This document shows positions 603 to 9,872 of a DNA stretch of 10,154 nt, piece by piece. How positions within the stretch are numbered: position 1 is the stretch's first letter; every line of letters starts with the position of its first letter. The position numbers and the translations under genes were made by a program. The stretch comes from a virus. Below the pieces are notes generated by a model that was not told the DNA's origin, made no database searches, and saw nothing but the letters and a program-made list of their open reading frames with translations. Where the stretch lies: the UHGV virus genome UHGV-1550841; one strand, written 5' to 3'.

Positions 603-612
603 GTGACGGTAT
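603..612 (+). repeat. GTGACGGTAT 10-mer copy 2 (candidate integrase arm-type site)
   Basis: Exact 10-mer, 57 bp upstream of the integrase GTG start and abutting an operator-like palindrome. Confidence 0.4.
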
Positions 613-626
613 TACCTTAAAGGTAT
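612..626. promoter_or_regulatory. Operator-like palindrome TTACC-TTAAA-GGTAT (9/10 to TTACC-N5-GGTAA) upstream of int
   Basis: Overlaps a possible -10 (TATACT, 624-629) about 40 bp upstream of the integrase start. Confidence 0.3.
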
Positions 627-632
627 ACTCTC

Positions 633-642
633 ATACCGTCAT
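633..642 (-). repeat. ATGACGGTAT (9/10 copy of the GTGACGGTAT motif, inverted orientation)
   Basis: Plus strand reads ATACCGTCAT. Forms an inverted pair with the copy at 603-612. Confidence 0.3.
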
Positions 643-668: not shown

Positions 669-1925
669 GTGCTTACCGATACAAAATTAAAAAACCTCAA
701 GCCACAGGACAAACTGTACAAAGTTTCCGATCGTGACGGGCTGTATGTGGCTGTGCTTACGTCAGGCACGGTCTCGTTTCGCTACGACTACCGTATCAAC
801 GGTCGCCGCGAAACGCTGGTAATCGGGCAGTATGGGCGTGACGGTATCAGTCTGGCAGAAGCGCGAGAAGAACTGATTGCTGCAAAGAAGCTGCTTAAAG
901 CAGGCCAGTCACCGGCTGCGGCTAAACGTGACGGTATCAAAAAGATTCGTGGTGCCGAGACGTTTGCGGTACATACCGACAGTTATATGAAACACGTCAT
1001 CCTGGCTGACAGTACCCGCGCAATGAAACAGGCGGTGATCGACCGTGACATACTTCCGGTTCTTGGCAATAAAATGATGGCTGAAATTACCACATCGATG
1101 GTTCGTGATTTGTGTGACCGGATTGTCGAACGCGGTGGCCGGGCAACAGCAGTGCAGGCCAGGGAGATCATCAGCAGCGTATACCGTCACGCCAATGACC
1201 GTGGTCATGGTTTGTTTAATCCTGCGGCTGACATTAAACCTTCGTCTATCGCCATATTTAAACCACGAGAGCGAACACTGACACCAGAAGAAATTGGCCT
1301 GTTCTTCCGCACGCTGGATGCCATTGGTGCTATGGGCACTATGAAAATGGCTTTAAAGCTGGTGCTTATCACTATGGTTCGTAAAGGCGAATTCACCAAC
1401 GCAACGTGGGATGAAATAGATTTTAAAAAATGGACATGGACAATTCCTTCAGACCGCATGAAGGGAAGCCGGGCGCACGTTATTTACCTGCCTAAACAGG
1501 CTCAGGATATATTGGTCGGGTTGCAGATGTGCGCTGGTGGAAGTGAATATCTGGTTCCTGGTCGTTACAATTTCCGGAAGCCATTATCTAATGCCGCGCT
1601 GAACTCTCTGATCGACAGAACGGTGAAAATAATAAATGAAGATGGTGAGCATATTCAGGGCTTCACCGTACACGATATGCGCCGTACAGCCAGTACGTTG
1701 TTGCATGAGGCTGGTTATCCTTCAGACTGGATTGAAAAGGCTCTGGCACATGAGCAGAAAGGTGTGCGCGCCGTATATAACAAAGCGGAATACGCCAGAC
1801 AGCGCGCCTACATGTTGCAGCAGTGGGCCGATATGATTGATTCCTGGATTAACGGGGAGCATACGGATCTGATTCCGTTCTCCCCGTCGAAGTTTGAGAG
1901 GTGGATGGAAGACAGTAATAAATAA
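669..1925 (+). CDS. int: Tyrosine site-specific integrase, P4-type (arm-binding N-terminal domain plus catalytic domain)
   Basis: 418 aa. N-terminus LTDTKLKNLKP...GLYVAV...SFRYDYR fits the P4-type integrase arm-binding domain. C-terminal region has the HxxR motif (VHDMRRTAST) and conserved Tyr region. GTG at 669 is the only start available (in-frame TGA at 663-665); SD is weak. Stop TAA 1923-1925. Confidence 0.9.
   Translation: MLTDTKLKNLKPQDKLYKVSDRDGLYVAVLTSGTVSFRYDYRINGRRETLVIGQYGRDGISLAEAREELIAAKKLLKAGQSPAAAKRDGIKKIRGAETFAVHTDSYMKHVILADSTRAMKQAVIDRDILPVLGNKMMAEITTSMVRDLCDRIVERGGRATAVQAREIISSVYRHANDRGHGLFNPAADIKPSSIAIFKPRERTLTPEEIGLFFRTLDAIGAMGTMKMALKLVLITMVRKGEFTNATWDEIDFKKWTWTIPSDRMKGSRAHVIYLPKQAQDILVGLQMCAGGSEYLVPGRYNFRKPLSNAALNSLIDRTVKIINEDGEHIQGFTVHDMRRTASTLLHEAGYPSDWIEKALAHEQKGVRAVYNKAEYARQRAYMLQQWADMIDSWINGEHTDLIPFSPSKFERWMEDSNK
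838..847 (+). repeat. GTGACGGTAT 10-mer copy 3, inside the integrase coding sequence
   Basis: Exact 10-mer; extended match GTGACGGTATCA shared with the copy at 928. Confidence 0.35.
928..937 (+). repeat. GTGACGGTAT 10-mer copy 4, inside the integrase coding sequence
   Basis: Exact 10-mer; extended 12-mer GTGACGGTATCA identical to the copy at 838. Confidence 0.35.
1181..1190 (-). repeat. GTGACGGTAT 10-mer copy 5 (inverted), inside the integrase coding sequence
   Basis: Plus strand reads ATACCGTCAC. It encodes different amino acids from the other in-gene copies, so the repeat is a DNA-level feature. Confidence 0.35.
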
Positions 1926-1927
1926 TT

Positions 1928-2587
1928 CTATCCTTCCTGGACTTTGGTAAGCGTCAGATTTCCGCAGAACACTGCGCCGGTGTCGATGTACATTTGGTTT
2001 GCATACACCAGTGGGTGATGTGCTGGCGTATGACCGAAGATGAACAAATCGGCACCGGTTATCTCCGAGACAATACCGTCCTGCGCGTCGCTAACCCGCT
2101 CACGATTCCATATCACCATTTCTTCCGGTACTGGCTTATCGAATGCGTATTCGTTGTGCGGGTAGTCTGCGTGGCAGATGACGACCTTCTTATTGCCGGT
2201 AACCAGTTCGATAATCATCGGGAGGTTGGCAACCTTTGGCAGAAGGTATTTGATTTGCACATCCTGCTCAGAATCAAGTTGGTGCCACCATCCACCGCCG
2301 TTTGACATCCAATGTCCGAAACTTCCGCCGTTGACCAGTGCATCCAGCATCATCTGCTCATGGTTGCCACGAACAGCTCGGAACCACGGCATAGTAATCA
2401 AATCCAGGCATTCGACGTTTTCAGCGCCGCGGTCAACAAGGTCACCAACGGAAATAAGTAAATCGCGCGCCGGGTCGAATGAAACTTTGTCGAGTTCGTT
2501 CATCAGCAGCGTGTAGCACCCATGCAGATCGCCGACGACGAAGATATTGCACCAGTCAGCGCCATTGATGCGTTGATATAGGTTCAT
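1928..2587 (-). CDS. Ser/Thr protein phosphatase, PP-lambda-like metallophosphoesterase
   Basis: Translation from ATG 2587 ([12 protein letters not shown]...) shows the three phosphoesterase signature motifs GDLHG, GDLVDRG and GNHE. The longer ORF start at 2707 is rejected because ATG 2587 overlaps the upstream gene stop (ATGA). Confidence 0.85.
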
Positions 2588-3234
2588 GCTGCACGCTCCC
2601 GCCCCTGGTTGTCTATTGGTGACACCGGAGCATTGCTGAATGCATTTGTTAATCCTCCAATATCCAACGCGTATCCAGGGTGTAGTTGCACTGCCGGGTC
2701 TTCGCACTGATTACCCCAAACATCGAAGCCATGAGACGTCTGGCGGGCGAACAGTTCAATGCGAGAAACATCGCCTAACAATTGCACAAGTTTTTCACGA
2801 ACGATATCTGGTTTTCTTGAATGCTCAAGCCGCGGTGCGGTAAATGACTGAACGATCCCTGCATTAATGCGCGTAGGTAGTTTTCCCTTTACCGCAAACA
2901 GGCAATCTTCACTATTGGCGCGAGTCATGTGCCCCATACCCATAACCAGTTTATCTGGTTGTCGACTACCACATTTTATCCACGTGAAGCCCTTCATGGT
3001 CATCAGACGGAATCCCCAGGCTTCAACAACTTTTAGTGCTTCGAGTGGTTGTGTTGGCACCCACCACATGGCCAACAGACAGTTTTCATCGGCCAAATCC
3101 CACACAGGAAGGCGGCAGATATCCAGCACACTCATAACCGGATATTTAAAACCGGCACCGCGATTACCATCTGCGGCTTTGTCCCGGTATACCCAGGGTG
3201 GATCTGCATAGATTAGTGTGTATTTCTTAGTCAT
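2584..3234 (-). CDS. MT-A70 family N6-adenine DNA methyltransferase (DPPW motif), orphan, no adjacent restriction gene
   Basis: Translation [14 protein letters not shown]... carries the DPPW catalytic motif near the N-terminus typical of MT-A70/phage adenine methyltransferases. ATG at 3234 is preceded by a G-rich SD-like sequence; the alternative GTG at 3246 is less likely. Stop overlaps the phosphatase start. Confidence 0.8.
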
Positions 3235-3526
3235 AAACCACCCCACAACATCCTATGCCGCTATAGTCGCCACGGCGAAGGCCGTTACCTTTTGTGATAC
3301 ATTGGTCCCTGCGAACCGCGATCCTTGCACGTTCAACATCACCAGAAGCAACATCCATACACTGAAGCCAAAGGTGAGCGGCAATGCGGAATTGCCCTTT
3401 TTTCTCTCTTTCAATCGCGCGTTTTTCGATCTCTATCGCCGCAGGAGTAACGGCGACAATCTTTGACGGACTGCGCATTGAAACCTTATTCATGTGATAT
3501 TTTTCAAGTCGGCTTAACTTTCTCAC
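3227..3526 (-). CDS. Hypothetical protein (99 aa from GTG 3526; alternative ATG start at 3493)
   Basis: ORF in operon orientation filling the gap between the AlpA-like gene and the methyltransferase; its 3' end overlaps the methyltransferase start by 8 nt. GGGGG SD-like sequence upstream of GTG 3526. No recognisable family. Confidence 0.3.
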   Translation of the reverse strand: MRKLSRLEKYHMNKVSMRSPSKIVAVTPAAIEIEKRAIEREKKGQFRIAAHLWLQCMDVASGDVERARIAVRRDQCITKGNGLRRGDYSGIGCCGVVYD

Positions 3527-3635
3527 TTAATCCAACCCCCTCTGAAAATTAATGCCAGCAGATAAAGCCATGCTGAAACAGAGGCCAGGAATAAGTACCA
3601 TCCTGACCATTTGCTCCAGTGCCTTAGCAGCGCAC

Positions 3636-3884
3636 TCATGCAGCGTTGCTCACGGGACGATATACACGTTGCTGAACAGGAGGCTTTTTACCCTGGAACT
3701 CTGCCGGGCTTGCTGCCTGACGTTCATCAAGCCAACGCTCAACTTCATCACGGTTCCATGCGCAGCGTTTATCGGTGATATACCAGCGTTTAGGAAATTC
3801 CCCTGCGCGCTCCATACGGTCGATAGTGCTCCATGACAGTGGCACCACCGCCAGGAGTTCTTTCTTACCTAATGCACCTTTCAT
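3636..3884 (-). CDS. AlpA/Xis-like small DNA-binding protein (putative excisionase or prophage regulator)
   Basis: 82 aa. The segment LLAVVPLSWSTIDRMERAGEFPKRWYITDKRCAWNRDEVERWLDE matches the AlpA/excisionase-type winged-helix pattern. Good SD (AGAGGT) 5-6 nt upstream of ATG 3884. Confidence 0.65.
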   Translation of the reverse strand: MKGALGKKELLAVVPLSWSTIDRMERAGEFPKRWYITDKRCAWNRDEVERWLDERQAASPAEFQGKKPPVQQRVYRPVSNAA

Positions 3885-3933
3885 GAATACCTCTCTTGGT
3901 TGCAGTGCGGCGCACGTGGCGCCGCGGTGGTGG

Positions 3934-4851
3934 TTACATAGATGTTTCGTTTAATTCTTCCCGACGAACGCTGTAAACGTCGGTGGCTTTTGCCAGCAGT
4001 TCGTCATCATCTGAAAGTTTTTGTGCAATGTATTTGTAAGCCTTATCCAGTTCGGAGACAGTGCTGTAATTCATCGCTGCGCTGGTAAAGGCCATCAGCA
4101 TTTCTTCTGGATCACGGCTATCCGCTTTACGCGTTTGCTCATCATGCTTTTTCACTGGTTTAGCGTTGATCAGACTGTTCATGCTGGATGCTGTGCCGTG
4201 CTTTGCCTGACTTCTTGGAGTTACGTCACGTTCAATAATGTCAGGTGAGTCGATATATTTACCTTCCATTTCCTCAGCTGTGGCTTGTTGACCAATCTCC
4301 GGCCATGCTTTACGTAATGCCTGTGCCTCTGCGCATTTTGCCAACTGCGCATAAGGGCGCTTTTTCCACATGGCATTTGGTGCCGATGTGTCACGCCCCC
4401 CAGTTGCATAGTTCTCAATCCAGTATTCTTTGGCGCTAAACTCTACGATTTCCCCGCTTGCCATTCGCTTGCTGACGGTGTACTTACACCACTGAGGGAA
4501 GGTAACCTCCACGCCTGAAAGCGTTTGTGTTACATCTGGACCGAACTCAGGTTCATTAGCGCCTGCGTAATCGCCGGAACGGTAGGCCTGAATGCGATAA
4601 AGTCCAATGCCAGGCATGACCACGTCGCGCCATTCATTCTTTCCACTCTTCGAGTCTTTAACACTCATTGGTACCAGGTGTACCGGCTTAAGAAGAGGAT
4701 CGAGTTGACGCGCCCGGCAGTAATCGACTGCCATCATTACCGATTCATCTTTTGCCCCAGGGTAAATACTGTTTTTCAGAGCGCTCCATGTAACTTCATC
4801 GATTCCCCGAATAGCCAACACATCATTGGTGATTGCAATTTCGTTGCTCAT
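3934..4851 (-). CDS. recT: RecT/Bet-family single-strand annealing recombinase
   Basis: Translation from ATG 4851 (MSNEIAITND...). The region NAMWKKRPYAQLAKCAEAQALRKAWPE resembles the conserved RecT/Bet C-terminal core. ATG overlaps the TGA of the upstream exonuclease gene (ATGA), the classic exo-recT pairing. Confidence 0.8.
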   Translation of the reverse strand: MSNEIAITNDVLAIRGIDEVTWSALKNSIYPGAKDESVMMAVDYCRARQLDPLLKPVHLVPMSVKDSKSGKNEWRDVVMPGIGLYRIQAYRSGDYAGANEPEFGPDVTQTLSGVEVTFPQWCKYTVSKRMASGEIVEFSAKEYWIENYATGGRDTSAPNAMWKKRPYAQLAKCAEAQALRKAWPEIGQQATAEEMEGKYIDSPDIIERDVTPRSQAKHGTASSMNSLINAKPVKKHDEQTRKADSRDPEEMLMAFTSAAMNYSTVSELDKAYKYIAQKLSDDDELLAKATDVYSVRREELNETSM

Positions 4852-5669
4852 ACGTACATATCCTGTTTGCGTGCCCACTCAGGGCGTTTAATAATTTCCA
4901 CGCCGCCCCATTCATCGCTGATGCGGCATTCGTGATAGGTATTCAGATCCCGGCGGAACAGAGCGTGCCCGGCATCGACATCCGGCGCATCCAGCTCGAA
5001 CACGCGTACCGGATACCGACCACAATCAATGCTTTCGCTCACGGCAAGAAAGAAAAAACCATGCGGCTGACCAGTAACCCTCATTGCGCCTTCGCGGTAC
5101 ATTGCGTCCTGCACGTGGTAGCGGAATTCCTCGATGTGACGTGCAAAACGGTCCATATCTGCAACCTTTTTCACGTCGATGATCACGTTGTGCTCGTTCA
5201 GCCATTTGTCTGGACGAATTCGGCACAACTCACCAGTCTCTTCATCGTTCCAGTACATTGATGCTTCGCAGTAACCAGGTGCTTCCAGCATCCAGCGTGC
5301 CGCCGGGTGAGCCATTGCGCTATCACGCATCAGCTCCAGTTTCCGCCACTGCTCGGCATCAAGTACCGCAATCCCCATATCCGCTACATCACGAAGAAAT
5401 GCTTCTTCGTCAGCTTTACCTTGTTTCGTCCGACGATCGAACTTTGGTGAAACAATGAAGCGTTTGTCGAATTCTCCAGGCTCCAGAAGCAGACAGTGCA
5501 ATGCAGTTCCCATATCTAGTGCAGACTTTTTCTCTTCGTCTTCTGGTGCTGCCTGAACCCATTTAAGAAGCGCCGGATTCTTGGCAACCATGTCCAGTTG
5601 CGACTTACTCACGCCGTCACCGGCGTGGTAGTCCTCATTGCTGATGTCGAAATAGATGCCAGTATTCAT
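4848..5669 (-). CDS. RecE-like PD-(D/E)xK exonuclease (partner of RecT)
   Basis: 273 aa. N-terminus FDISNEDYHAGDGVSKSQLDM is typical of RecE-like/PDDEXK exonuclease domains, with an IIDVKK-type motif downstream. Translationally coupled to recT. Confidence 0.75.
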   Translation of the reverse strand: MNTGIYFDISNEDYHAGDGVSKSQLDMVAKNPALLKWVQAAPEDEEKKSALDMGTALHCLLLEPGEFDKRFIVSPKFDRRTKQGKADEEAFLRDVADMGIAVLDAEQWRKLELMRDSAMAHPAARWMLEAPGYCEASMYWNDEETGELCRIRPDKWLNEHNVIIDVKKVADMDRFARHIEEFRYHVQDAMYREGAMRVTGQPHGFFFLAVSESIDCGRYPVRVFELDAPDVDAGHALFRRDLNTYHECRISDEWGGVEIIKRPEWARKQDMYV

Positions 5670-5872
5670 AACTTAACCTTGTATTCGTTCTGCTTGTTGG
5701 AACGGGTTCCATCGTGGAAATATATTGCGCTCCTGGTTACCTCTACCCATTTGCGACGTTCAAGCTCAGCGATGAACCAAGAAACCTTCGATCTTGAGAT
5801 ACCAAGAATCTTTGCCATATCTCGGATGCTGTGTTTTCCACCTCGCAGCAATGAGAGGAGTGTTGGTTTCAT
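5666..5872 (-). CDS. Small helix-turn-helix (winged-helix-like) DNA-binding protein, unknown role
   Basis: 68 aa. HTH-like segment SIRDMAKILGISRSKVSWFIAELERRKWVE. SD GAGGGA 7 nt upstream of ATG 5872. ATGA overlaps with both neighbouring genes. Confidence 0.5.
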   Translation of the reverse strand: MKPTLLSLLRGGKHSIRDMAKILGISRSKVSWFIAELERRKWVEVTRSAIYFHDGTRSNKQNEYKVKL

Positions 5873-6168
5873 GCCGCGTCCCTCTGTCCATCAAGCTGAT
5901 CCGCCAGATCCCAGCGGGCGATAATTACCATTGCCTCTCGCCGATAGGCATCCATCAGTTCTTCGAACTCAGGGCTGTCTTTAGCAGCCTCCAGTACTTC
6001 CTGGCGAACGCCTTTGCCTGTTACAACGTCGAAAGTTGAGGACAGTTGATGAAGTCGGATGCTCTCAATCAGTTCAACTTGTCGGTCATATAGCTGTTCT
6101 GACAGGCGGTAGTCCTTGTCGAATGCCAGCATGATTTTTTGAAGATTTTTCTGCTGATTAACGTCCAT
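5869..6168 (-). CDS. Hypothetical protein (about 99 aa), occupies the position of Gam/Kil-type accessory genes upstream of the recombination genes
   Basis: ATG 6168 has a strong SD (GGAGGG, 6175-6180) and is preferred over ATG 6183. Stop overlaps the start of the HTH gene. No recognisable family. Confidence 0.5.
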   Translation of the reverse strand: MDVNQQKNLQKIMLAFDKDYRLSEQLYDRQVELIESIRLHQLSSTFDVVTGKGVRQEVLEAAKDSPEFEELMDAYRREAMVIIARWDLADQLDGQRDAA

Positions 6169-6170
6169 TA

Positions 6171-6323
6171 TCAGCCCTCCCATATCTCGTTATCGTTGGC
6201 CACATCGCGAGCTTCTTTGCTGACGAAAGCCCACTTAATGCCTTCCTGTAAGGTGCGGAACTTCCAGCTCATGAATCCGCATGCAGTAACGCAGTACCAA
6301 CCGTTGATGATTTTCCACTGCAT
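6171..6323 (-). CDS. Small ORF (50 aa), first gene of the leftward early operon; not N-like
   Basis: Manually translated (below the size cut-off of the ORF track): MQWKIINGWYCVTACGFMSWKFRTLQEGIKWAFVSKEARDVANDNEIWEG. ATG 6323 preceded by GAGGT; stop TGA 6171-6173 sits immediately before the next gene's SD and ATG. Confidence 0.3.
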   Translation of the reverse strand: MQWKIINGWYCVTACGFMSWKFRTLQEGIKWAFVSKEARDVANDNEIWEG

Positions 6324-6342: not shown

Positions 6343-6357
6343 TTACCGTTGGGGTAA
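6343..6357. promoter_or_regulatory. Operator OL-proximal: perfect palindrome TTACC-GTTGG-GGTAA
   Basis: Perfect half-sites. Abuts the proposed -10 of the leftward early promoter. Confidence 0.5.
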
Positions 6358-6385
6358 TAATTATGCGTATCTGGTTTGATGTCAA
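6357..6385 (-). promoter_or_regulatory. PL-like sigma70 promoter for the leftward early operon (-35 TTGACA at 6385-6380, 17-bp spacer, -10 AATTAT at 6362-6357)
   Basis: Consensus -35 hexamer read on the minus strand; 17-bp spacer; moderate -10. Bracketed by two operator palindromes. Confidence 0.4.
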
Positions 6386-6404
6386 TAGATATGAGTTAAA
6401 AAAA

Positions 6405-6419
6405 TTACCCGTTAGGTAA
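6405..6419. promoter_or_regulatory. Operator OL-distal: perfect palindrome TTACC-CGTTA-GGTAA
   Basis: Perfect half-sites, 19 bp upstream of the -35 of the PL-like promoter; centre-to-centre 62 bp from the site at 6343-6357. Confidence 0.5.
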
Positions 6420-6430
6420 TCTAACAGGCA

Positions 6431-6455
6431 ATAAAAAAGCCGCCAGAAGGCGGCT
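6431..6455 (-). terminator. Rho-independent terminator downstream of the repressor gene (minus strand)
   Basis: Stem AGCCGCC (6438-6444) / GGCGGCT (6449-6455) with AGAA loop; on the minus strand it is followed by a run of T (plus-strand AAAAAA at 6433-6438). Confidence 0.6.
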
Positions 6456-6476
6456 TACTTACTGAAAAATATGATT

Positions 6477-7061
6477 TTATTGTTTGTTTTTTTCGTTCTG
6501 GTTGATGACAAATTCAATGTAACTTTCGATCTTTGCTTTCTCGGTTTCGGGTAACAATGCGTAGCGCGAGCGGTCATAGTTGATAGTCGCAGGGTCGTGC
6601 GGGTGAATCAGTAGTTCATAGCCGTGACGCCCGAATGCGGATGCAACATTCTCCAGGGTGGAAATGGAAACGCTGACCTCATTGTTTAACAGGCGGCTGA
6701 TTGTCACCTGGGCGACGCCGGATGCGCGGTGAAGTTTTCCCTGTGTTGAAAGGTCGCGGCTTTCGCTCATCCAGCGTTCCAGGTTGTGAGCCGCCAGCTG
6801 ACCTATATCGCTCGGGCCGACAGGCTGAAAACCCTCCTGAGAAAGCGAACGATCAATATCAAGCCAGTTACGGGGTTTATTGGCGGCAGCTTCAATTTTT
6901 CGCGCAACCTGGTCGCCGATAACCTTCTTGCCAAGAGCCCAGCGGTTTACCAGATTTGCCTGAGTTCCAAGTTTTTCTGCCATCCGCGTCTGAACACCAT
7001 TGAATTCACGGTCGATCAAGTCGTTGAGATTTTGCCTGCGGACGTCCTGGATACTTTTCAT
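6477..7061 (-). CDS. Immunity repressor candidate with two tandem HTH (XRE-like) domains and no recognisable LexA/S24-type autocleavage domain
   Basis: 194 aa. N-terminal HTH-like segment (TRMAEKLGTQANLVNRW) and a second HTH-like segment (LHRASGVAQVTISRLLNNEVSVSISTLENVASAFG). Transcribed divergently from the Cro-like gene; flanked by operator palindromes on both sides and followed by a hairpin terminator. Confidence 0.75.
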   Translation of the reverse strand: MKSIQDVRRQNLNDLIDREFNGVQTRMAEKLGTQANLVNRWALGKKVIGDQVARKIEAAANKPRNWLDIDRSLSQEGFQPVGPSDIGQLAAHNLERWMSESRDLSTQGKLHRASGVAQVTISRLLNNEVSVSISTLENVASAFGRHGYELLIHPHDPATINYDRSRYALLPETEKAKIESYIEFVINQNEKNKQ

Positions 7062-7116: not shown

Positions 7117-7131
7117 TTACCCAACAGGTAA
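7117..7131. promoter_or_regulatory. Operator OR site 1: perfect palindrome TTACC-CAACA-GGTAA
   Basis: Perfect half-sites in the divergent repressor / Cro-like intergenic region. Confidence 0.5.
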
Positions 7132-7133
7132 AT

Positions 7134-7148
7134 GCACCTCATAGGTAA
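7134..7148. promoter_or_regulatory. Operator OR site 2 (imperfect): GCACC-TCATA-GGTAA
   Basis: 8/10 match to the half-site consensus, 2 bp from site 1. Confidence 0.3.
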
Positions 7149-7164
7149 CTATCCTTGATTTTTG

Positions 7165-7179
7165 TTACCTTATGGGTGA
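7165..7179. promoter_or_regulatory. Operator OR site 3 (imperfect): TTACC-TTATG-GGTGA
   Basis: 9/10 match; lies between a -35-like TTGATT (7155-7160) and the Cro-like start. Confidence 0.3.
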
Positions 7180-7215: not shown

Positions 7216-7446
7216 ATGAGCGATAACGGACATTTCGATTTCAAAAAGCACTGGCTTGCACTTACTCCGGATGAGCGTGAAGCCTTCGCACAGGAAGCCG
7301 GAACGACGAGTCACTATATCCAGACTCACTTAACAGGTAAGCGCAAAATGCCAGGTAAAGTATTGATGAATGGGCTTTTTAAAGCCTGTAAAACAAGACA
7401 ATGGTTGCGCTCAAAAGCAGAACTGGCATACTTCTTCTACTCATGA
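7216..7446 (+). CDS. Cro-like (possibly CII-like) small HTH regulator, first gene of the rightward operon
   Basis: 76 aa. HTH-like segment EAFAQEAGTTSHYIQTHLTGKRKMPGKVLMNG. Position directly divergent from the repressor across the operator cluster. Confidence 0.55.
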   Translation: MSDNGHFDFKKHWLALTPDEREAFAQEAGTTSHYIQTHLTGKRKMPGKVLMNGLFKACKTRQWLRSKAELAYFFYS

Positions 7447-7468
7447 TATCCAGCTACACCCCTCTGTA

Positions 7469-7490
7469 GACCGCCACCCGGCGGTCTTTT
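7469..7490 (+). terminator. tR1-like rho-independent terminator after the Cro-like gene
   Basis: Stem GACCGCC (7469-7475) / GGCGGTC (7480-7486), loop ACCC, then TTTT. Confidence 0.5.
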
Positions 7491-7501
7491 CATATCTATT
7501 C

Positions 7502-7516
7502 GCACCTTAAAGGTAA
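7502..7516. promoter_or_regulatory. Operator-like palindrome (imperfect): GCACC-TTAAA-GGTAA, upstream of the replication genes
   Basis: 8/10 match; same TTAAA spacer as the site at 612-626 and same GCACC left half as OR site 2. Confidence 0.3.
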
Positions 7517-7597
7517 TAAAAAACCAAATATGGTTGATCTTTTTTTTGTGTCAGCACAAAATAACCGTAATCCCAATACTAATAACAGGGCTTACCA

Positions 7598-7797
7598 TGG
7601 AAATCATTACACGTATTGATGCCGCAAAGCGCGGACTTAAACGCTACTACACCGGAAAAACATGTAAGCACGGACATGACAGTGAACGCTGGGTTTACAA
7701 TGGACACTGTGTTGAGTGCACCATGGAATCAAACCGTCGTATCAGGGCAGAGATTAAGCAGATCATGATTAATTCCTCCCCACAACATTCAAGCTGA
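7598..7797 (+). CDS. Small Cys/His-rich (putative zinc-binding) protein at the cII position
   Basis: 66 aa from ATG 7598 (MEIITRIDAAKRGLKRYYTGKTCKHGHDSERWVYNGHCVEC...), motif C-x-H-x-H...C-x2-C. The longer ORF in the track starts at TTG 7534 and would run through the operator and terminator region, so the ATG is preferred. Confidence 0.4.
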
Positions 7798-7812: not shown

Positions 7813-8628
7813 ATGAGCAGACATGCAACAGATTGGGCCTGGGAGACAGATCCAGGTAGCTCGTCATTAAAGCTCATACTGCTCTCGATGGCTGACAGAG
7901 CCGATGAATATAACCTCTGCTACCCCAGCATAGAACGCCTCGTTAAAGACACTTGCCTGAATAAAAAAACCGTGCAGGCCGGGCTTATATCGCTCATGAA
8001 AATGGGGCTTATTTCAGATACCGGAGAGAGAAAGGGAGCGACGAAAAGAGTGCGGGTTTTCTCTCTTAATATAACCAAAAACGGGAACATTAAAGGCAAC
8101 CGGGAAGGGGGTAACGAACCCGAAAACGGTAATGTTACCGAAAACGGGAATATACCCAAAAACGGGATGTTGAATGATCCCAAAAACGGGATGTTGAATG
8201 ATCCCAAAAACGGGATCCAGAACCAGTCATATAACCAGTCATTTAACCAAGAGAGGGAGAGCAGGACAAAAAGCGGGGATTCTGTGCCTCATGACCCCGG
8301 AGCAAACAACGCCGTGATGAATAACTTTGTTCCTCCTGGTGGGCCAGGGCAATTAGGCAAATTTGTCATGCATGAACAATGGCAGCCATCAGATGACTTT
8401 CTTCGGAAAAGCTCATTGCAGGGGATCTACCTGGACAGTCTGCCAACGGCACAGGAACTTGCAGAGTTCAGAATTTACTGGATGGCTGAGGGTAAGGCAT
8501 ACCATCAGGCACAGTGGGAGCAGAAGCTGGCAAGGCGGCTGCAGATTAGCAGACAGAAGCAATCAACATTACCTGATAACAACGTTCCGCACTGGAACAG
8601 CCCTGAAGCATGGGAGGATTTCTTGTGA
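7813..8628 (+). CDS. Replication initiator, lambda-O-like in organisation (N-terminal winged-helix, internal iteron-encoded repeat linker, C-terminal domain)
   Basis: 271 aa. GGAG SD 8 nt upstream of ATG 7813. N-terminal HTH-like region (LKLILLSMADRADEYNLCYPSIERLVKDTCLNKKTVQAGLISLMKMGLI). The central part is encoded by direct DNA repeats (iterons). Directly followed by a lambda-P-like gene. Confidence 0.75.
   Translation: MSRHATDWAWETDPGSSSLKLILLSMADRADEYNLCYPSIERLVKDTCLNKKTVQAGLISLMKMGLISDTGERKGATKRVRVFSLNITKNGNIKGNREGGNEPENGNVTENGNIPKNGMLNDPKNGMLNDPKNGIQNQSYNQSFNQERESRTKSGDSVPHDPGANNAVMNNFVPPGGPGQLGKFVMHEQWQPSDDFLRKSSLQGIYLDSLPTAQELAEFRIYWMAEGKAYHQAQWEQKLARRLQISRQKQSTLPDNNVPHWNSPEAWEDFL
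8076..8218. repeat. Origin-type iterons inside the O-like gene: six copies of an AAAACGG(G) core, including a perfect 24-bp tandem repeat
   Basis: Cores start at 8078, 8123, 8141, 8159, 8183 and 8207. CCCAAAAACGGGATGTTGAATGAT occurs at 8155-8178 and 8179-8202, with a partial third copy at 8203-8218. Followed by the direct repeat AACCAGTCAT x2 (8221-8242). Confidence 0.6.
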
Positions 8629-9410
8629 ACAACGTTTTTACCGCGATACAAAACCGTGACGGAGAAGCCCTTTCTCGCATGTCAGGTTATGAGCATCAGT
8701 ACGTCAACAATGACAATGTGGTGAACATGTCAGCAGAGAGGCTTGTTGATGCCCTTTTTAAACAGCTGAAACAACTGTTTCCGGCGGCAGTGGTAACCAA
8801 CCTGAAGACGCCAGAGCAGGAAGTTGCTGCAAAACAGCAGTGGATTGCTGCGTTTGCCGAAGGGGGGATCCGAACCCGTGAACAGGTTTCTGCTGGTATG
8901 CGCCACGCCCGCGCCAGTGAATCTCCGTTCTGGCCGTCTCCAGGGCAATTTATCAAGTGGTGCAAAGACAGCAAGATGGTTCTTGGCGTCACCATTGACG
9001 ATGTGATGGCGGAGTTTCACCGGTACAGCAAGGAAAAAAGTTTATATCCTGGTGGTCCCGAAAGATTCCCGTGGCGACATCCGGTTATGTACTGGGTCGT
9101 ATGTGATACCCGCCGTGCAATGTATCAGCGCCAGCTTAGCGAGATTGAGGTTGAGAAACACGCACGCAGGCTGCTCGATGATTGGGCGAAAAAGGTGGCT
9201 TCCGGACAGCAGATACCCGATCCGGTGATCAGCATACAGGCAAAGCCAGAGCCCATGAGTACGCCTCCGGACACAGGGAGAGACGTTTACCATCCACCAG
9301 GGCGAAGTTTCGGGTGCATGCCTAACGCCGCCACCCTTGGGGGAATAACACCGGCGCAGTGGCTGATGGAGGAATACAGGCGGGGAAAGGCGGCAGGATT
9401 TATCAAGTAA
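8625..9410 (+). CDS. Lambda-P-like replication protein (helicase loader)
   Basis: Translation aligns by eye with lambda P as I recall it (FPA...QW.AAF.E.GI.T.EQV.AGMR.AR....PF.PSPGQF..WC, and LYP....PW...YW). GTG 8625 has a GGGAGGA SD at 8612-8618 and overlaps the O-like stop; ATG 8610 is an alternative start. Confidence 0.8.
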   Translation: MNNVFTAIQNRDGEALSRMSGYEHQYVNNDNVVNMSAERLVDALFKQLKQLFPAAVVTNLKTPEQEVAAKQQWIAAFAEGGIRTREQVSAGMRHARASESPFWPSPGQFIKWCKDSKMVLGVTIDDVMAEFHRYSKEKSLYPGGPERFPWRHPVMYWVVCDTRRAMYQRQLSEIEVEKHARRLLDDWAKKVASGQQIPDPVISIQAKPEPMSTPPDTGRDVYHPPGRSFGCMPNAATLGGITPAQWLMEEYRRGKAAGFIK

Positions 9411-9447: not shown

Positions 9448-9462
9448 TTACCTATCAGGTAA
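9448..9462. promoter_or_regulatory. Operator: perfect palindrome TTACC-TATCA-GGTAA
   Basis: Perfect half-sites, 19 bp upstream of a -35-like TTGATT. Confidence 0.5.
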
Positions 9463-9481
9463 CAAAACATTCTAAAATCTA

Positions 9482-9510
9482 TTGATTTCGTGTCTTATGT
9501 GGTTTTTAAT
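9482..9510 (+). promoter_or_regulatory. Sigma70-like promoter (-35 TTGATT at 9482-9487, 17-bp spacer, -10 TTTAAT at 9505-9510) bracketed by two operators
   Basis: Hexamers and spacing read directly; geometry relative to the flanking palindromes is identical to the PL-like promoter. Confidence 0.4.
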
Positions 9511-9524
9511 TACCTTAGAGGTAA
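9510..9524. promoter_or_regulatory. Operator: perfect palindrome TTACC-TTAGA-GGTAA overlapping the -10, start region and SD of the DUF1064-like gene
   Basis: Perfect half-sites; centre-to-centre 62 bp from the site at 9448-9462. Confidence 0.5.
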
Positions 9525-9527
9525 ATC

Positions 9528-9872
9528 ATGAGAAAACAGATACAGGCTCTTGGTCGACTCAAAACAGGCCAGATGAACAAAACAGAATCTGCGTATTGCC
9601 AGCACCTTGAGCAGCGTAAACGTGCAGGGGAAATCGCCTGGTATCGATTCGAGGGTATCAAGTTGCGGTTAGCTGACAACACGTTCTATACGCCCGATTT
9701 TGCTGTGATGCTCGCCACCGGCGAGATGGAACTGCACGAAGTGAAAGGTTTCTGGACCGACGACGCCAGGGTGAAAACCAAAGTCGCCGCAGATCAGTAT
9801 CCGTTCCGAATCATCGGGGTAACGGTTAAGCCAAAGAAAGCAGGTGGTGGCTGGAACATCGAAGAGTTCTGA
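9528..9872 (+). CDS. DUF1064-like phage protein (small, possibly nuclease-fold)
   Basis: 114 aa. Pattern KTESAY..HLEQRKRAGEI..YRFEGIKLRLADNTFYTPDF...HEVKGFWT resembles what I recall of the DUF1064 prophage family. AGAGGT SD 5 nt upstream of ATG. Confidence 0.5.
   Translation: MRKQIQALGRLKTGQMNKTESAYCQHLEQRKRAGEIAWYRFEGIKLRLADNTFYTPDFAVMLATGEMELHEVKGFWTDDARVKTKVAADQYPFRIIGVTVKPKKAGGGWNIEEF

Follow-up and report, generated by a model that had tools for sequence, protein, structure and literature searches.

Candidate weak Rep operators upstream of int and behind the cro-like gene of a phiV10/epsilon15-like podophage

The stretch of DNA analyzed in this study (the window, 10,154 nucleotides of virus genome UHGV-1550841, read on one strand) shares about 97% identity with phage phiV10 of Escherichia and with related phages of the genus Uetakevirus (epsilon15-like podophages), and comprises attP, int, and the early, immunity and replication regions of a phage of this type. 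A search of 5,426 complete E. coli genomes gave prophage matches in several hundred of them; these prophages are located at guaA, and the matches start at window position 462. The following features were recognized in the window.

1–351: end of the Rz/Rz1 region
462–478: attP core ATTGAGTGGGAATGATT, from sequence reading; integration at the 3′ end of guaA
523–552: terminator, called strong
669–1925, plus strand: int, an open reading frame with the Pfam domains Arm-DNA-bind_3, Phage_int_M and Phage_integrase, about 99% identical to phiV10 Int
1928–6323, minus strand: leftward early operon, including a gene for an AlpA-family excisionase at 3636–3884
about 6437–6456: terminator
6477–7061, minus strand: Rep, immunity repressor with two HTH domains (PDB 5D50 match, Pfam HTH_3)
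7216–7446, plus strand: cro-like gene
7468–7494, plus strand: terminator-like hairpin (7468–7487) with a T tract, situated behind the cro-like gene; the phiV10 annotation has a terminator here
7597–7797, plus strand: small open reading frame of 66 amino acids, from the phiV10 annotation, the first gene downstream of the presumed promoter Pc (see below)
7813–9410: DnaT-like and P-like replication genes
9528–9872: DUF1064 gene

The attP core has been determined experimentally in phages ZX5, phiV10 and epsilon15, with the 3′ end of guaA as the integration site (PMC9782041). A Pfam search with the product of 7597–7797 gave no match. Next to int, positions 1928–3246 form a mosaic region with a gene content unlike that of phiV10, in which two longer minus-strand open reading frames (1928–2707 and 2584–3246) were found, one of them overlapping an annotation of the metallophosphatase type in relatives. 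RecE and RecT correspond to separate open reading frames in the window, versus a fused annotation in the phiV10 record. Tandem repeats were observed within the DnaT-like gene at 8118–8249 (an 18-bp unit repeated 2.8 times, a 24-bp unit repeated 2.6 times with 100% identity, and a 12-bp unit repeated 2.4 times); these may be iteron-like and mark a replication origin inside the initiator gene, as in lambda.

The 10-mer GTGACGGTAT was found in six copies (one mismatched) within 381–1190, against 0.35 expected. These copies are presumably Int arm-type sites, and the GenBank record of epsilon15 assigns integrase binding to the same 10-mers. Their positions, obtained by a 10-mer search, were as follows.

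381–390: arm-type copy
603–612, plus strand: arm-type 10-mer GTGACGGTAT of the integrase, adjoining the left half of a dyad at 612–626
633–642, minus strand: inverted, slightly degenerate arm-type 10-mer ATGACGGTAT
838–847: arm-type copy
928–937: arm-type copy
1181–1190, minus strand: arm-type copy

Three copies lie inside the int coding sequence, and the cluster spans attP and the first 520 bp of int. The inverted copies at 603–612 and 633–642 bracket the dyad together with a −10-like hexamer, and the copy at 633–642 decays in Enterobacter relatives without compensating changes. By analogy with phage P4, the positions of the arm sites suggest that Int regulates its own gene. A palindrome, GTGATAA-ACTTG-TTATCAC, was also noted at 416–434 in the P arm, directly beside the attP core on its left; it is not preserved in epsilon15, whose corresponding stretch carries annotated IHF sites.

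Rep (6477–7061) matched the repressor of phage SPC32H (PDB 5D50) over its full length with E = 4e-42. In the work of Kim and Ryu from 2013 and of Kim et al. from 2016, Rep is reportedly left uncleaved during the SOS response and is disassembled by a small antirepressor, the gene of which is under LexA repression. According to PMC9638917, SPC32H Rep binds DNA as a tetramer with two DNA-binding pairs, formed across dimers, and good DNA binding is reported there for the tetramer only, the dimeric form being weak. Three groups of operators with the consensus TTACC-N5-GGTAA were delimited in the window.

6343–6419, minus strand: PL module, with operator 6419–6405 TTACCTAACGGGTAA, 19 nt, TTGACA, 17 nt, AATTAT, and operator 6357–6343 TTACCCCAACGGTAA
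7117–7179: OR cluster, with operators 7117–7131, 7134–7148 (GCACC variant) and 7165–7179 (inside PR)
9448–9524, plus strand: P3 module upstream of the DUF1064 gene, with TTACCTATCAGGTAA, 19 nt, TTGATT, 17 nt, TTTAAT and TTACCTTAGAGGTAA

The clearly functional sites of PL, OR and P3 occur in pairs, 17 or 62 bp apart. PL and P3 follow an identical 77-bp plan in the direction of transcription. The spacing of 62 bp between operator centres at PL and P3 was kept in almost all the relatives examined (63 bp at PL of the Klebsiella phages), and it fits a single Rep tetramer placed across the promoter on both operators.

Five perfect matches to TTACC-N5-GGTAA were found in the window (6343, 6405, 7117, 9448 and 9510) against 0.01 expected. 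Allowing one mismatch added 7165 and 612–626, with 0.20 sites of at most one mismatch expected per window, and allowing two mismatches added 7134 and 7502–7516 (both GCACC..GGTAA) as well as five intragenic sites; two-mismatch matches alone are not rare (14 seen versus 3.3 expected). A weight matrix was constructed from 291 distinct operator sites of relatives, the window and both candidate site classes being excluded. With this matrix the seven clear operators of the window scored 16.6–26.8 bits (16.6 for OR2 at 7134), 7502–7516 ranked eighth with 15.8 bits, 612–626 ranked ninth with 14.1 bits, and the best remaining 15-mer of the window reached 4.9 bits. Both 612–626 and 7502–7516 are far outside the motif background.

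Scanning of the epsilon15 genome with the same motif gave four one-mismatch sites and 11 perfect sites (fewer than 0.6 expected), and the perfect sites precede the packaging, head, antirepressor/tailspike, lysis, PL, PR and post-replication units. This spread indicates that Rep appears to hold nearly every transcription unit directly, and int would be the sole transcription unit without a motif site if 612–626 were discounted. The GenBank record of epsilon15 lists seven repressor sites; it omits the OR sites at 33341, 33358 and 33388, as well as 24704 (lysis genes) and 35969. The counterparts of both candidate sites are absent from the repressor sites annotated in that record, and for the stretch upstream of int its authors annotated an integrase site and an RNase III site, not a repressor site.

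The preliminary description of this DNA had called 612–626 a degenerate copy of the operator, which proved correct: the site reads TTACCTTAAAGGTAT, with one mismatch to TTACC-N5-GGTAA. Two features were recorded upstream of int.

612–626: candidate weak Rep operator, TTACC-TTAAA-GGTAT; one mismatch, 14.1 bits, conserved dyad
624–629, plus strand: −10-like hexamer TATACT of the presumed int promoter; TATACT, TATAAT or TATATT in all relatives

The same description had placed the site over a possible int −10. The overlap with TATACT at 624–629 stands, but the hexamer is just −10-like: no −35 was found at 16–18 nt from TATACT, and the promoter consensus scan called neither a −35/−10 pair nor any other promoter here. 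GTGACG was considered as the −35 of this promoter and judged unconvincing at a spacing of 15 nt, and the combination of TTGGCG with TACCTT was discarded as not conserved. A second operator near the int site was likewise rejected: TTACC at 672–676 (60 bp downstream, at the start of int) is TTACT in Salmonella relatives and its right half is missing.

TTACC-N5-GGTAT was always found upstream of int in ten annotated phages (of Escherichia, Salmonella, Enterobacter and Klebsiella), and it was also found there in prophages of Pseudocitrobacter, Kluyvera and Citrobacter. A larger set was assembled from the IMG/VR contigs carrying both outside anchors, CTATTCACTCTA and ACGGGTGAA, plus the loci already collected, resulting in 107 loci with 36 distinct sequences from at least six host genera. 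The pattern aTTACC-N5-GGTATa was present in 36/36 distinct sequences with 10 spacer forms: all ten half-site columns were invariant and all five spacer columns variable, with 36 invariant columns among the 78 between the anchors. Under random placement, P is about 2e-4 for the invariant half-sites and 1.6e-5 for the full dyad pattern; the site lies in a block that is highly conserved anyway, with the attP arm sites and the −10 hexamer. Conserved half-sites flanking a drifting spacer are the signature of a dyad bound by a dimeric protein, with contacts in the half-sites and not in the spacer. In one IMG/VR contig (L099, positions 1415–1524), a 13-bp insertion, ATATGTGAAATAC, separates the Int arm site from ATTACC; the spacer, CAATG, differs, and the dyad and the −10 hexamer are intact. 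Since the dyad is kept despite the insertion, its left half-site does not depend on the Int arm site and is more than the tail of it.

The single mismatch of the dyad (GGTAT, not GGTAA) is also the T at the third position of the −10-like hexamer, and it is probably kept because that T serves the hexamer as well, a double constraint. T at operator position 15 (equivalently, A at position 1) occurs in 0/291 training operators, so the int site is probably weak. No partner operator at either of the distances seen in OR, PL and P3 (17 or 62 bp) was found for 612–626; lone perfect motif sites are present in epsilon15 at 2932, 19896 and 24704. Both candidate sites do share the TTAAA spacer in the window, as had been pointed out in the preliminary description, but the spacer is not conserved, with 10 forms at the int site and 18 at the other site in relatives (TCAAA at the post-cro site of phiV10). 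These operators have a general T-N-W-N-A spacer preference, and the sharing of TTAAA is a coincidence or at most a reflection of that preference.

A specificity swap (the same int/attP with another repressor, or the reverse) was not found among the homologues retrieved. Int homologues of at least 80% identity were confined to Uetakeviruses, the next ones reaching at most 33%, and the Rep homologues retrieved, which had identities as low as 42% and came in part from other genera (five genomes), were without exception accompanied by the same TTACC/GGTAA half-sites and the same int.

The second site, which had been described as lying after the terminator, was confirmed at 7502–7516 as GCACCTTAAAGGTAA, with two mismatches to the consensus; it begins 15 nt past the hairpin at 7468–7487, which is followed by the T tract. 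Its GCACC..GGTAA variant is also present in the bona fide OR cluster, at 7134. The region behind the cro-like gene contains the following elements.

7502–7516: GCACC-TTAAA-GGTAA, candidate for a weak operator upstream of an internal promoter; two mismatches, 15.8 bits
7534–7562, plus strand: presumed internal promoter Pc, with −35 TTGATC (7534–7539), 17 nt and −10 CAAAAT (7557–7562)
7562–7576: decayed downstream operator position TAACCGTAATCCCAA, four mismatches
Pc module as a whole: GCACCTTAAAGGTAA, 17 nt, TTGATC, 17 nt, CAAAAT, TAACCGTAATCCCAA (four mismatches)

A post-cro set anchored solely on the hexamers TTGATC and AAAAT gave 119 occurrences with 66 distinct sequences. In all 66 the right half GGTAA was invariant, with 18 spacer forms between the halves. 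The left half was GTACC in 24, GCACC in 17, ACACC in 13, AGTCC in seven, ATACC in four and TCACC in one; nnACC was thus kept in 59/66 and a perfect TTACC left half was seen in 0/66. The distance from the end of the site to TTGATC was 17 nt, and 16 or 18 nt in two sequences. The Pc hexamers match 8/12 consensus positions, under the threshold of the promoter scan, and CAAAAT is conserved while the 17-nt Pc spacer varies, even where a mosaic junction introduces another downstream gene. Directly after CAAAAT, most Salmonella, Klebsiella and Enterobacter relatives have a perfect TTACC half-site, and one relative has TTACCGTAATAGTAA, with one mismatch, at the downstream operator position.

The post-cro region aligns with the PL and P3 modules, the gap between upstream operator and −35 being 17 nt, and the downstream operator of the PL, P3 and Pc modules begins in each case with the final T of the −10. 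This alignment and the fixed spacing point to 7502–7516 as the upstream operator of an internal promoter of the replication genes. The site is best read, on comparison of these sequences, as part of a third copy of the PL/P3 module, which refines the earlier description of its position after a terminator. The hairpin after the cro-like gene is kept in all relatives with compensating changes in the stem (e.g., at 33695–33725 of epsilon15). Its T tract was found in the E. coli and Enterobacter types only, the Salmonella and Klebsiella types having TCCTTCC or TCCTGCC; the hairpin may not be a simple intrinsic terminator everywhere. In addition, a second dyad, AACCA-AATA-TGGTT (7522–7535), overlaps the presumed −35 of Pc. 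In relatives its outer (A/T)(A/T)CC...GGTT is kept and its centre is variable, and its ACC/GGT core has a 6-bp spacer versus the 5-bp spacer of the operator; it could be a site of the cro-like protein or a variant Rep site.

Because 612–626 lies within the P′ arm, at a distance of 134 bp from the attP core, and is flanked by inverted GTGACGGTAT arm sites, it can be read as an architectural element of attP for Int, the AlpA-family excisionase or a host factor, the operator likeness being coincidental and due to a shared GGTA. In agreement with this reading, CGGTA, CGGTA and AGGTA repeat every 13–14 bp, the spacer ATTAC of the Klebsiella phages makes the right half ACGGTAT, near the arm-site sequence, and an integrase site is annotated at the homologous place in the epsilon15 record. 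We nevertheless regard it as unlikely. GGTAT is preceded by A in most variants, by G in one and by C in the Klebsiella type only, whereas true arm sites always have C, and a search for GTGACGGTAT with at most one mismatch did not return 617–626, which shares GGTAT only. The left half ATTACC is invariant, is not arm-like and survives the 13-bp insertion in L099, and the other arm sites have no accompanying dyad. Chance matches to the operator with at most one mismatch amount to about 0.2 per 10 kb, hence about 0.002 in the interval of about 115 bp. The inverted repeat 603–642 was also evaluated as an RNA hairpin, with TACC/GGTA as its inner stem, that would form an RNase III site in late-operon readthrough and control the stability of the int mRNA. 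The RNA fold is good (−16.1 kcal/mol, z = −3.9 versus shuffles) and RNase III is annotated at the homologous place in the epsilon15 record. However, the covariation score was no better than that of shuffles, with one pair changing on both sides while mostly unpaired, the pair 606–639 was broken in 8/18 sequences and the pair 617–621 in 10/18, the strong terminator at 523–552 stands upstream of the hairpin, and an int mRNA starting downstream of TATACT would exclude it. A good fold with no compensatory covariation makes the hairpin reading highly improbable, and it was rejected. Finally, Rep in the P′ arm, which stays beside int in attL, might block or reshape the Int–arm complex and so gate excision directly, independently of int and xis expression. 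We give this little credence; if it were the case, recombination competence would be coupled to the LexA–Ant–Rep switch.

For 7502–7516, the competing explanation is that of an auxiliary operator aiding PR/PRM repression through looping of the Rep tetramer, comparable to lac O2/O3 and the flanking sites of 186 CI, or of a non-functional remnant of the module. The two DNA-binding pairs of the tetramer, as described in PMC9638917, would permit such looping, and the downstream operator of the Pc module is decayed in the window phage and most relatives, Pc agrees with the consensus at 8/12 positions, and the left half of the site is always imperfect. Against this, the distance to TTGATC is fixed among the 66 distinct sequences and CAAAAT is kept across the mosaic junction, which argues for a local promoter–operator unit, and a pure remnant would not hold GGTAA invariant amid 18 evolving spacers. 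Both forms of this explanation are accordingly doubtful, and a local upstream operator of Pc remains the preferred reading of 7502–7516.

Taken over both loci, the reading that we consider probable is that 612–626 and 7502–7516 are low-affinity operators of the phage's own Rep, a homologue of the SPC32H/epsilon15 Rep tetramer. Almost all transcription units examined in this genus carry operators of the Rep type. The proposal in the preliminary description of weaker operators tying int and the replication genes to one regulator is supported, at the level of sequence, by the conservation of the dyads across the genus, the match to the Rep consensus and the putative promoter contexts. From the same data we infer that Rep binds both sites, that the promoters are active, and in which direction and how strongly they are regulated.

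Rep bound to 612–626 would hinder RNA polymerase at the int −10-like hexamer, so that int expression would be kept low in the lysogen until the LexA-controlled antirepressor dismantles Rep, at which point int would be released along with xis (from PL). Pc, as an internal promoter directly behind the cro hairpin, would drive the replication genes, and its repression would probably depend either solely on the weak upstream site or on assistance by a Rep tetramer held at OR, through the second DNA-binding pair of that tetramer. Looping by this second pair could fill lone weak sites, e.g., between OR and 7502, which are 340–385 bp apart. Upon infection, Rep being absent, int would be expressed, and accumulating Rep would then damp int and replication; upon SOS induction, the antirepressor would free the operators of Rep, and int, xis and the replication genes would come on together. 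The Rep of phage ZX5 is reported to be identical in sequence to phiV10 Rep (PMC9782041). In a published ZX5 infection with over-produced Rep, free phage was gone and all phage DNA was still integrated. Integration under excess Rep makes a tight block of int unlikely, suggesting that repression of int is leaky or slow; the ZX5 result agrees with a weak int operator and equally with no operator.

The closest known system is the Rep–operator system of epsilon15-like phages (epsilon15 gp38; SPC32H Rep, PDB 5D4Z/5D50, with the antirepressor Ant), with the same repressor family, the same TTACC-N5-GGTAA consensus and the same spread over many units; compared with the epsilon15 and SPC32H operators, 612 and 7502 are imperfect and in effect unpaired. 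In lambda (CI at OR3 and OL3) and coliphage 186 (CI at FL and FR), weak or auxiliary immunity-repressor sites are filled by cooperativity or by looping of the multimeric repressor. The likeness to these auxiliary sites lies in the low affinity for the immunity repressor, and Rep has a different fold and oligomer. In lambda, control of int is exerted by CII (at PI) and by PL, N and sib, and we know of no operator control at the int promoter itself. In phage P4, the int promoter is repressed by Int itself and by Vis. The window phage resembles P4 in its P4-type integrase, in arm-type sites that flank or overlap the integrase's own promoter in attP, and in an AlpA/Vis-family protein encoded nearby; compared with P4, Int autoregulation in the window phage is suggested by site positions only. 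To our knowledge, no immunity-repressor operator is found at P4 Pint. The stoperators of mycobacteriophage L5, bound by gp71, are asymmetric, orientation-dependent sites that affect elongation. Many repressor sites throughout the genome, including sites downstream of an early promoter, are a feature in common with L5; identity of 612 and 7502 with L5-type stoperators was rejected, both being dyads in intergenic, putative promoter regions. Integron integrase promoters carry LexA boxes (PMC3108266): as proposed here, the promoter of a tyrosine recombinase gene is overlapped by a repressor site, with expression following SOS. The repressor and the motif differ from those of integrons, and LexA acts directly there and would be two steps removed here (LexA to Ant to Rep).

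On this sequence evidence, 612 and 7502 most likely add weaker operators to a repressor system that is already known, and the resulting operator map has practical value and changes no concept. Phages of the phiV10 type serve as reporter phages for E. coli O157, and a map of the operators and the internal promoter is useful for their engineering. If Rep binds both sites, every transcription unit of this phage type, including int and a separate replication promoter, would answer directly to one repressor that is removed by a LexA-controlled antirepressor. This would be a simpler logic than the CII/N/sib control of int in lambda, and it would explain the joint onset of excision and replication at induction.
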